DNA of 64,000 nt from an uncultured Chloroflexia bacterium (GTDB taxonomy: Bacteria > Chloroflexota > Limnocylindria > Limnocylindrales > CSP1-4). The notes below the pieces were generated by a model. The model was not told where the DNA came from. It worked only from the letters and a program-made list of their open reading frames with translations, and did not search any database. Shown here one piece after another: positions 42,655 to 44,906 of the stretch (position 1 is the stretch's first letter; each line of letters starts with the position of its first letter). The stretch lies in contig CAVRBO010000004.1 in assembly GCA_963719285.1 (NCBI GenBank), positions 95,103 through 159,102 on the forward strand, given 5' to 3'. The translations under genes and the position numbers were made by a program.

Positions 42655-43632
42655 TCAGGCGTTGTCGACCAGCGGCTTGACCTCACCGATGAGCCGCTCG
42701 ATCGTCTCGACGTCGTACGGCGCGGGCTGCTCCGAGATCACGGTGTGGAAGCCGAGCTTGACGTACGGGATGAGTCGCTCGGCGAGCTGCTCGGCGGTCC
42801 CGCACCAGAACGTGTCGTCCTCGTCGAGCTCGCTGACGGGCGTCTTGTTGTGCTCCAGCGCCGCGGTCTGGACGCGCCGAGCCTCGGCCTCGGTGTCCCG
42901 GATCAGGGCCTTGATGCCGAGCGTGAACTCGATGTCGGCGATGTCCCGGCCGACGTCGTCGCAGTGACGGCGCAGGACATCGATCTTGCGGGCCATCATG
43001 TCGGGCGGGCCCATCGCGTTCCACATGTCGGCGTACCGGGCGACCGTCCGCAGCGTCTTCTTCTCGCCGGATCCGCCGATCATGATCGGCAGGCGGGTCT
43101 GGACCGGGAGCGGCAGCTGGTGCGCGTTGAGCATCGCGTAGCGCCCGGCCGGCGCCGAGGTCACGAGCTCCCCGTCGAGCAGCCGGCGCTGGAGGCCGAC
43201 GGACTCGTCCAGCCAGTCGAGCCGCTGCCCCGGGCTCGCCCCGAAGGCGATGCCGTGGGCTTCGTGTTCCTTCTCGAACCACGCCGCACCCACGCCGAGG
43301 ATCGCCCGGCCGTTGCTGATGTGGTCGAGCGAGGTGGCGTTCTTGGCCTGGATGCCCGGGTTGCGGAACGTGTTCGCGCCGACGAGGAGGCCGAGCCGGG
43401 TCTGTTCGGTCGCCATCGCGTAGGCGTACAGGAGCGCCCATCCGTCGAGGATCGGCTGATCCCAGTCGCCGAAGATCGCGTTGATGTGATCCCATGCCCA
43501 GAGGTGGGCATAGCCAAGGCGATCGATGAGCTTCGCCGTCGCGAGCTGCTCCGGCCAGGTCGAGCCCTGGTTCCACGGCAGAATGCCGAGCTGCAGGCCG
43601 TCCTTGGGGGAGCCGGAAGTGGTGGCGGGCAT
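42655..43632 (-). CDS. LLM-class (likely F420-dependent) flavin oxidoreductase
   Basis: WAWDH, NTFRNPG, LDHISNGRAILGVGAAW, PIMIGGSGEKKTLR. Confidence 0.9.
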   Translation of the reverse strand: MPATTSGSPKDGLQLGILPWNQGSTWPEQLATAKLIDRLGYAHLWAWDHINAIFGDWDQPILDGWALLYAYAMATEQTRLGLLVGANTFRNPGIQAKNATSLDHISNGRAILGVGAAWFEKEHEAHGIAFGASPGQRLDWLDESVGLQRRLLDGELVTSAPAGRYAMLNAHQLPLPVQTRLPIMIGGSGEKKTLRTVARYADMWNAMGPPDMMARKIDVLRRHCDDVGRDIADIEFTLGIKALIRDTEAEARRVQTAALEHNKTPVSELDEDDTFWCGTAEQLAERLIPYVKLGFHTVISEQPAPYDVETIERLIGEVKPLVDNA

Positions 43633-43713: not shown

Positions 43714-44568
43714 CTACCCCAACGGCAGGGTGGCCAGGTCGCCCTCGATCACCTCGCGGTCCTCGGCTTCGGCGATCGCGTCGCACGCGGCGCGGGCACG
43801 GGCCGCCCACTCGCGAGCCGCCACGAGGTCGCCGCTCACGGCGAGGGCGCGGGCCATGGCCTCGTAGGCGCTCGCGATATCCCAGTCGCGGATCCCGTTC
43901 GCCTCGTTGATGTCCACGCAGCGGCGGGCGTGCCAGAGGGCGGGCTCGGCACGGCCGAGGACGGCGTAGACCCGCGAGCACTGCCACTCCCCGCGGGCGA
44001 GGTTCGCCGCGGTGCCGGCCCTGCCCCAGTGGTAGCGCGAGGCGTGGGCGGTGTGGATCATCTCGTCGATCTGGGCGGGCGTGCGATCGGCGATCTCGAG
44101 CAGCGTCCAGGTGTGGTTGAACAGCTCTGCCCCGAGCCGGCGATGGGCCGCCTCGTCGAGCACGTCGGAGGTGGCGGCGGTGTCGGTCACGATCGGTCCC
44201 TTTCCTTCACTCAGCTGGCCCACGATGTGGAGGATCCGTTGGAGGCGGAACGTCCGCGCCTCCACGCGGCCGCGATGGGTCGCCAGCCAGCGCCGGCGCT
44301 CCGCCGGGTGGTCCGTGGCGAGCAGCTCGCGGATCTCGTCGATCGGCATCTCGAGGTCACGCAGCCGCGCGATCGTCCGCGCGGTGTCGAGCTGCGCTCG
44401 GCGGTAGCGGCGGTAGCCGGTGAACGGGTCCACGTCGGCCGGCCGGAGCAGGTCGAGCTCGTCGTAGTGGCGGAGCGCCCCCACCGACAGCCCGGTCAGC
44501 CGGGCGAAGCGCCCGATCGCCAACAGGTCGGTGTCGGTCTCCATGTGGGGCGTGCCCGGCTCGCTCAT
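43714..44568 (-). CDS. MerR family regulator fused to an uncharacterised helical domain
   Basis: IGRFARLTGLSVGALRHYDELDLLRPADVDPFTGYRRY; C-terminal FNHTWTLLE...HASRYHW...RGEWQCSRVYA. Confidence 0.88.
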   Translation of the reverse strand: MSEPGTPHMETDTDLLAIGRFARLTGLSVGALRHYDELDLLRPADVDPFTGYRRYRRAQLDTARTIARLRDLEMPIDEIRELLATDHPAERRRWLATHRGRVEARTFRLQRILHIVGQLSEGKGPIVTDTAATSDVLDEAAHRRLGAELFNHTWTLLEIADRTPAQIDEMIHTAHASRYHWGRAGTAANLARGEWQCSRVYAVLGRAEPALWHARRCVDINEANGIRDWDIASAYEAMARALAVSGDLVAAREWAARARAACDAIAEAEDREVIEGDLATLPLG

Positions 44569-44574
44569 GACGCG

Positions 44575-44605
44575 ATGGTGGACCCTCGGGCTACCGGAGA
44601 GTCAA
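44575..44605 (-). promoter_or_regulatory. MerR-type promoter with 19-bp spacer and dyad operator
   Basis: Minus strand: TTGACT, 19 nt, CACCAT, 6 nt, ATG; dyad GACTCTC...GAGGGTC overlaps the -35 and spacer. Confidence 0.75.
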
Positions 44606-44627: not shown

Positions 44628-44906
44628 TCAGGCGTTGTCGAGCTCGCGCGAGATCGCCCGGGTGATGAACCGGGCCGCTTCGGCGCTCTTGCCACCCAGG
44701 CGCTGGCCGTCGTCCTGCTCGAGCGCGACCATGAGGTCGCCGAGCATCTGGTCCAGGAGTGGCGTCCGGACGAGCGTCCCGCCGGCGAAGGCCGCCTCCA
44801 ACTCCTCGACCGCCCGGCGGGTGTTCTCGACGGCGTGGCCCTTCTCCTCGATCGTCGCCCGGAACGCCGCTCGGGCGCTCTCGGCGGCGGGGCCGTCAGA
44901 CGCCAT
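44628..44906 (-). CDS. Hypothetical protein (92 aa, helical)
   Basis: Clean ORF with typical codon usage downstream of the GNAT gene. Confidence 0.75.
   Translation of the reverse strand: MASDGPAAESARAAFRATIEEKGHAVENTRRAVEELEAAFAGGTLVRTPLLDQMLGDLMVALEQDDGQRLGGKSAEAARFITRAISRELDNA

Follow-up and report, generated by a model that had tools for sequence, protein, structure and literature searches.

An apparently self-regulated MerR-type gene of uncultured Chloroflexota carries a conserved candidate internal start ahead of its tetratricopeptide-repeat-like sensor domain

The gene described here lies on the minus strand of a 64,000-nucleotide stretch of DNA from an uncultured Chloroflexia bacterium (the window; positions 95,103 to 159,102 of contig CAVRBO010000004.1, assembly GCA_963719285.1). 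The source genome is a metagenome-assembled genome (MAG) of 5 contigs and 3.4 Mb that is 90% complete, and its nearest relatives are labelled Candidatus Limnocylindrales, phylum Chloroflexota. The layout of the gene suggests a self-controlling MerR-type switch that is fused to a helical-repeat sensor domain with no assigned function. Comparison with homologues indicates that this sensor domain is very probably also made alone, from a conserved internal start.

The open reading frame for the long product (43714..44568, minus strand) specifies 284 residues with a computed mass of 31.7 kDa and begins at a predicted leaderless ATG at 44568. Residues 18 to 84 (44317..44517) make up a MerR winged helix-turn-helix (HTH). 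In a Pfam scan of the long protein, this region matches MerR_1 (PF13411) with an E value of 1.2e-13 and 51.4 bits (cut-off 21.6), and PF00376 is matched with 35.4 bits (cut-off 28.2). In an AlphaFold2 (AF2) model of the full-length protein, which has a mean predicted local distance difference test score (pLDDT) of 93.1, the HTH is followed by a long helix (residues 88 to 120, 44209..44307), assigned as the dimerisation coiled coil, on which PF09278 (MerR-DNA-bind) is a marginal match at 25.5 bits against a cut-off of 25.4. A coil linker of lowered confidence (residues 121 to 138) then leads to the sensor domain, seven helices in an arrangement like that of tetratricopeptide repeats (TPR), which the AF2 model and structural matches place at residues 139 to 279 (43732..44154).

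The control elements of the gene, all on the minus strand, can be read directly. A -35 element, TTGACT (44600..44605), is followed 19 bp later by a -10 element, CACCAT (44575..44580), and an imperfect dyad, the putative operator, covers the 19-bp spacer (44581..44603). The dyad consensus is GACtCTCg-N7-cGAGgGTC, with its centre 14 nt into the 31-mer. The ATG at 44568 sits 6 nt past the -10 element. The HTH, the long dimerisation helix and the promoter with its 19-bp spacer and dyad are all present, as expected of the MerR family. At the junction between the coiled coil and the sensor domain lies a second set of signals: a Shine-Dalgarno (SD)-like stretch, GAAGGAAAGGGA (44197..44208), and, after a 6-nt spacer, an in-frame GTG at codon 127 (44188..44190), the proposed start of a short isoform. 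The corresponding coding sequence (43714..44190), assigned from the internal GTG and from the starts of stand-alone genes described below, would yield a protein of 158 residues (computed mass 17.3 kDa). The 16S rRNA of the same genome ends in the canonical anti-SD, CACCTCCTTTCT, with which GAAGGAAAGGGA pairs with a free energy (dG) of -7.5 kcal/mol; no window of equal size elsewhere in the gene matches this value.

Homologous loci were drawn from the genomes of relatives, from metagenome contigs, and from a set with one genome per species. A genome search with an alignment as the query matched 594 stretches, of which 586 were confirmed by tblastn and the best 80 were kept; a metagenome scan with a single protein as the query yielded 6 loci. 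After removal of duplicates, 84 distinct loci remained, each with a contiguous full-length match. These fused loci span Chloroflexota and Actinomycetota at 50 to 100% protein identity, and since they are related to one another, the counts over them carry no formal probability. L008, L015, and L103, which all represent a single frameshifted genome, were kept apart from the 84, as were partial or split matches (L067, L093, and L096) and contig-end or stand-alone fragments (L022 and L023).

The sequence-only reading of the window had named beforehand, as a test of its proposal, the conservation of the internal SD and in-frame GTG in homologues. That conservation is found throughout the set, and it is both specific to start codons and accompanied by a bias at synonymous sites. 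At the junction, each of the 84 loci has an in-frame ATG (41 loci), GTG (41) or TTG (2), with an SD-like stretch 5 to 10 nt upstream. The dG of anti-SD pairing at the junction is -7 kcal/mol or lower in 81/84 loci (median -9.5), a level reached by only 6.9% of 709 other in-frame ATG, GTG, and TTG codons in the same genes. The junction is the best window of its size in the gene at 69 of the 84 loci, and in the worst case it falls at 13%. There are 63 distinct 18-mers at the junction, in which the SD takes the forms GGAAAGGAG, AAGGAG, GGAGGA, and GAGGAG. Thus, the junction signal is more than one inherited string.

Codon choice at the junction follows the same pattern. Where the junction residue is valine, it is encoded by GTG in 41 of 41 cases, compared with 31% of the 1204 other valine codons, and both junction leucines are encoded by TTG, a codon used for 3.2% of the leucines elsewhere in these genes. 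Glycine at codon -5 is GGA in 29/35 instances (8% elsewhere), and arginine at codon -4 is AGG in 4/4 (3% elsewhere); synonymous sites upstream of the junction start therefore favor purines. The set-aside loci L067, L093, L096, and L022 also bear the junction SD and start. So does the frameshifted gene, in which the signal lies upstream of the frameshift. In this orthologue, from a genome of the same genus, the shift falls about 9 codons past the internal GTG and breaks the frames of both the long protein and the domain; it is either an assembly indel or the mark of a pseudogene. At the protein level, an alignment of 128 fused homologues has M or V in the junction column in 115, and the linker past this column varies in both length and sequence. 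In the AF2 full-length model, codon 127 lies in the coil linker with a pLDDT of about 74, and on this model a constraint from folding therefore fails to explain the conservation of the junction residue.

The promoter is conserved to a similar extent. A -35 element of the TTGAC type, a spacer of exactly 19 bp, and a -10 element that fits.A...T are present at 81/84 loci. In the 81 aligned promoters, TTGAC is invariant and the consensus is TTGACTCTCg..c.gcccGAGggTcCAcgaT. The distance from the -10 element to the first in-frame start is 6 nt in 45 loci, 7 nt in 27, and 8 nt in 6 (78/84 in all). A start only 6 to 8 nt past the -10 element implies that the mRNA for the long isoform is leaderless or nearly so. 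The earlier description of a leaderless, autoregulated promoter of MerR type, TTGACT-19 bp-CACCAT with a dyad, thus corresponds to a real and conserved arrangement. The paired positions of the dyad arms are complementary in 57 to 80 of the 81 loci, and two of the pairs have compensatory changes: pair 10/18 is G.C in 46 promoters and C.G in 15, and pair 7/21 is C.G in 74 and T.A in 5. Such compensatory pairs are the pattern predicted for the site of a dimeric protein. When the 3.4 Mb MAG was scanned with the dyad pattern alone, no further match was found at 0 or 1 mismatch. With the operator pattern anchored to the promoter, the gene's own site matched with 0 mismatches and one other site matched at 1 mismatch, compared with 1 control match. 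Because the operator has no second site in its own genome, the regulon is likely to be the gene's own transcription unit.

As a positive control, the same junction scan was applied to MerR genes with a TipAS domain (PF07739), the class of TipA, drawn from 201 Chloroflexota genomes. Of 30 loci retrieved, L128 and L132 were dropped as short open frames and 28 were analyzed. The SD and start were found at the junction in 19/28 loci; for the 18 strongest TipAS matches, the count is 16. Experiments have established two isoforms for TipA, the founding member, according to the passages of the reports that deal with it (PMC11098121, PMC7762955), and the scan thus recovers the signature in a family of this kind. 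The two-isoform design seems, from these sequences, to be general in the TipA class beyond Streptomyces. In loci L110 to L127, a GGAG-type SD with ATG is conserved, and the spacing from this ATG to the Pfam TipAS domain is exactly 17 codons in 11 of the 18.

Neither Pfam nor NCBIfam has a family to which the C-terminal 158 residues can be assigned above threshold. When these residues were compared with 1.84 billion representative proteins, 2111 clusters were found at an E value of 1e-3 or lower and 1126 at 1e-10 or lower. The best 150 representative clusters comprise 84 proteins of 180 residues or fewer with no MerR part, 17 MerR fusions, and 49 of other lengths. Members of the family, which include MAGs labelled Limnocylindrales, bear only the name "hypothetical protein" in the sources, as do the clusters of the ESM Atlas. 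Stand-alone homologues (the P0161 and P0171 clusters) also occur in two Asgard MAGs, labelled Promethearchaeota and Heimdallarchaeota; if these bins are clean, the domain family extends past Bacteria.

An AF2 model of the domain alone has a pLDDT of 97.1, a predicted template modelling score of 0.90, and seven helices. Foldseek searches with this model returned TPR proteins only, at E values of at least 1e-3. By VIA-align, the model superimposes on the TPR modules 3gw4, 2hr2, 2qfc, 4yvq (FLU-TPR), and 1elw (Hop TPR1) with Z scores of 13 to 16, a range common for helical repeats, and root-mean-square deviations (rmsd) of 1.8 to 3.6. For PlcR (2qfc), one of the top structural matches, Z is 14.5 and the rmsd is 3.6 over 140 residues. 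Sequence comparisons are less definite. When the domain profile was run against solved structures, the matches were weak TPR ones only (best E 0.02), and the domain of the window falls below the cut-offs of the Pfam TPR profiles (E 0.11 to 0.43); Pfam TPR_12 is matched by 14/60 members of the domain family. On the model, the fold is TPR-like, a right-handed array of helix pairs with a capping helix.

Twelve residues are invariant or nearly so in the fused set (47 sequences): N151, W154, E158, R162, H175, S177, W181, W195, R199, H213, E236, and R240. H180 is invariant in a 60-sequence alignment of the C-terminal domain; in the fused set, its conservation is 90% or more. No invariant or near-invariant cysteine is present in the 60 stand-alone or the 47 fused sequences. 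The sequence-only reading had proposed a self-contained, uncharacterised downstream domain with conserved histidine, tryptophan, and cysteine residues. The confidence of the domain-alone model and the 84 short clusters with no MerR part agree with the first point, and the lack of any Pfam or NCBIfam family of its own agrees with the second. H180 and W181 of HASRYHW and W195 of GEWQCSR (the last invariant in the fused set) hold up as conserved residues, and the cysteine of GEWQCSR does not. Cysteine-based sensing was rejected on this ground, and since the cysteine is not conserved, a covalent trap of the TipA type would be unlikely.

Stand-alone status was checked on DNA for 7 genes only (L009 to L014 and L023). 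L009 to L014 are true stand-alone genes in the genomes of six relatives: in three of them a stop codon lies just upstream of the start, and in the other three the upstream frame is open with no similarity to MerR. The seventh, L023, is on a metagenome contig. Three of the seven (L009, L011, and L023) occupy the neighborhood of the fused gene, directly past the gene for a 92-residue protein that is described below. In L011 and L023, the junction codon itself is the start: L011 begins with GTG-ACC-GAC, identical to the internal start in the window, and L023 retains GGAAAGGAG followed by 6 nt and GTG. L009 uses a GTG of its own, with a leader that is shorter and unrelated. The six stand-alone forms derived from genomes are dispersed among the fused ones in a tree of the domain, and a constraint that places them in one clade is rejected (difference in log-likelihood 104, approximately unbiased test p 4e-6), in a test whose group was defined by architecture, which was run after the first tree had been seen, and in which branch supports are moderate. 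The stand-alone genes resemble the outcome of natural deletions or fusions, in either direction, with the junction start as their sole one.

The closest parallels in design are TipA (TipAL/TipAS) of Streptomyces lividans and AlbA of Klebsiella oxytoca. In the portions of the TipA reports that describe it, an in-frame internal start yields the effector domain on its own, and this form predominates (PMC11098121, PMC7762955). AlbA is described, in the corresponding part of its report, as a self-upregulating MerR factor with a second in-frame product that is the ligand-binding domain alone; that domain, of 221 residues, consists of two all-helical domains in tandem that form a 40-Å tunnel (bioRxiv 10.64898/2026.09.21.753095). 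The claim that both systems use a long activator and a short isoform is therefore borne out as far as these accounts go (PMC11098121, PMC7762955, bioRxiv 10.64898/2026.09.21.753095). Like TipA, the protein of the window combines a MerR HTH and a coiled coil with an effector domain at the C-terminus, the gene has a MerR-type promoter of its own (as TipA does, in the portions just cited), and the junction SD and start signature is the one that the same scan finds in TipA-class genes. Unlike TipA, neither the whole protein nor its C-terminal domain matches PF07739 even at E <= 1, the fold is TPR-like, there is no conserved cysteine for covalent capture, and the long isoform would be leaderless. 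No TipAS domain was found elsewhere in the same genome. Because the defining TipAS domain is absent, the protein falls outside the TipA class; it may be said to work like TipA, not to be one. With AlbA/AlbAS, as the report presents it, the gene would share self-regulation and a probable second product that is the ligand-binding domain alone. It differs in having a single TPR-like domain of 3.5 repeats and about 140 residues, and AlbAS is absent from the listed structural matches of the domain model, a result that is still compatible with a distant relation.

The RRNPP regulators (PlcR, Rap, NprR, and PrgX) likewise link a DNA-binding HTH to a TPR sensor. These have an XRE-type HTH and a longer TPR array, in contrast to the MerR-type HTH and the 19-bp-spacer promoter found here. 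No gene for a signalling peptide was seen, in the absence of a systematic search for one. Within the MerR group, the nolA gene product of Bradyrhizobium japonicum, NolA, is reportedly made as several proteins from in-frame starts, and its C-terminal part is said to be unrelated to the domain considered here. Among the papers on MerR regulators that a literature search listed, none had the word "tetratricopeptide", and a further search was swamped by the botanical author abbreviation "Merr."; the absence of a MerR-TPR regulator from print holds for these searches only.

On the same strand as the fused gene and upstream of it lie, in order, the gene for a GNAT acetyltransferase and that for the 92-residue protein (44628-44906, minus strand); downstream is the gene for an F420-type luciferase-like oxidoreductase (42655..43632, minus strand; PF00296, E 1.2e-43; similar to TIGR03560, below the cut-off of that family). 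A gene named, from likeness only, as an ATP-dependent DNA ligase is found upstream on the opposite strand. Neighbors were searched at 90 loci, the 84 fused and 6 stand-alone. The 92-residue gene, without a family in Pfam or NCBIfam, immediately precedes the fused gene or the stand-alone domain in 59/90 loci, and the oxidoreductase is downstream on the same strand in 45/90, adjacent in 28. Among these 90 loci, neither of the two is found at the actinobacterial ones, where the GNAT and DNA ligase genes are missing as well. For this reason, the GNAT, the 92-residue protein, the oxidoreductase, and the DNA ligase were rejected as functional partners; they probably reflect lineage synteny. A complex prediction for the domain with the 92-residue protein scored 0.02 against a mark of 0.32, which is evidence in neither direction. 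The 80-nt gap between the fused gene and the oxidoreductase has no terminator-like site, and the two genes are possibly co-transcribed.

Several further observations concern the neighborhood and the sample. The 92-residue protein has a mean column identity of 80% over 45 sequences, an invariant GGKSAEAARFI core, and a C-terminus ending in RELDNA. Just past the downstream oxidoreductase, on the plus strand, is a sulfite-oxidase-like molybdopterin oxidoreductase (PF00174 and PF03404; 41432-42445), which is next to the gene in 1/84 loci. Loci L033, L043, L083, and L068 come from contigs labelled Saccharimonadales, Eisenbacteria or Steroidobacteraceae, nest among Limnocylindrales sequences, and share the promoter and neighbors of Limnocylindrales loci; they are probably mis-binned contigs rather than cases of gene transfer.

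From the anatomy of the gene, its conservation, the fold of its domain, and the stand-alone copies, a scheme can be proposed in which one self-regulated MerR-family gene gives two proteins and the short form buffers or sequesters a signal that both share. We consider this scheme probable as a whole, and comparison strongly supports its TipA/AlbA-like two-isoform design. Transcription would proceed from the MerR-type promoter with its over-long 19-bp spacer, whose dyad would be bound by the long product. Given a leaderless mRNA, the 31.7-kDa long isoform, with its HTH, coiled coil, linker, and TPR-like domain, would be initiated with no ribosome-binding site. The conserved SD and GTG in the linker would start the 17.3-kDa short isoform, the TPR-like domain alone. 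Binding of a signal by the TPR-like domain of the long isoform would then turn the promoter on. The short isoform would bind the same signal and so buffer or sequester it; as with TipAS and AlbAS, the positive feedback would be damped in this way. As the long form lacks an SD and the short form has one, the short form would probably be the more abundant.

A number of points weigh against this scheme. Both isoforms and the transcription start are inferred from sequence comparison, and an internal promoter could also yield the short form, a source that these data do not separate from internal initiation. The SD in the window (GGGA core, dG -7.5) is weaker than that of most homologues. The loci come mostly from one order of Chloroflexota, so that the counts overstate their independence, and for many of the "stand-alone" database proteins, the gene could in fact be a fused one that was annotated only from the internal SD onward. 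Finally, the buffering role is drawn by analogy only, and the domain here is TPR-like, not of the TipAS type, and has no conserved cysteine.

If the gene had a single product, the internal SD and start could be a relic of the fusion of two genes, or a site where the ribosome pauses and so aids folding or dimerisation of the N-terminal part. The domain clearly was once a separate gene with its own SD, which a fusion would bring along, and SD-like sequences are known to occur inside genes. A relic should decay, yet the signal is present at every one of the 84 loci, down to 50% identity, in several SD forms and at shifted positions. A pause site needs no start codon, yet the junction valines and leucines are encoded by GTG and TTG without exception, and the purine bias of synonymous sites also speaks against a single product. 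A single product is accordingly rated as very doubtful. The sequence-only reading had favored a drug-sponge form of resistance, in which an antibiotic or an electrophile would be sensed by the long isoform and soaked up by the short one. In its favor, the gene shares its design with TipA and AlbA, whose short forms sequester antibiotics; the operator is unique in the genome, so that the gene would be a minimal self-contained unit; and the GNAT two genes upstream has a weak, below-cut-off likeness to antibiotic acetyltransferases. The TPR-like fold is neither that of TipAS nor that of AlbAS, there is no conserved cysteine, no transporter or known resistance gene is linked, and the neighbors are a syntenic block of one lineage. 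In addition, a very broad stand-alone family that includes archaeal MAGs fits a housekeeping ligand better than one antibiotic. We regard a drug sponge as quite unlikely.

TPR folds bind peptides or proteins more often than drugs. The ligand in the groove of the TPR-like domain might be a peptide or a protein partner rather than a small molecule, and the short isoform might serve as decoy receptor or anti-activator, a reading that differs from the buffering scheme only in the kind of signal. The best structural matches of the domain are the peptide-binding TPR modules Hop/Sti1, SGT, LGN, and FLU-TPR (Z 13-16), PlcR, an HTH-TPR regulator that senses peptides, is also among them, and the invariant polar and aromatic residues (N, R, H, W, and E) point to a defined binding surface. 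Set against this, Z scores of this size are common for any TPR or helical repeat, and at actinobacterial loci the fused gene occurs without the 92-residue neighbor. Given the modelled fold, a peptide or protein signal seems at least as plausible as a drug, and as a specific proposal it has some, if a small, chance of being correct. A bolder version is a little less likely again: that the design of a sensor with a free-domain decoy arose independently in MerR regulators around a TPR-like domain that binds a peptide or protein, which would make this the first MerR-type sensor of such a signal, with the short isoform as its decoy receptor, widespread in uncultured soil Chloroflexota and Actinomycetota.

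If the scheme of one self-regulated gene with two products is confirmed, the production of a regulator together with an excess of its free sensor domain from one gene would not be peculiar to one effector fold; selection would have reached the TipA/AlbA design again with an unrelated domain. The gene also offers a first functional handle on a large uncharacterised family (the 2111 representative clusters) in abundant uncultured soil bacteria. The signature itself, which combines start-codon-specific codon choice, a purine bias at synonymous sites, and SD strength at a domain junction, is transferable and could guide searches for hidden internal starts elsewhere among multidomain regulators. 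In annotation, leaderless genes of this kind may end up split or truncated by gene callers at a strong internal SD.

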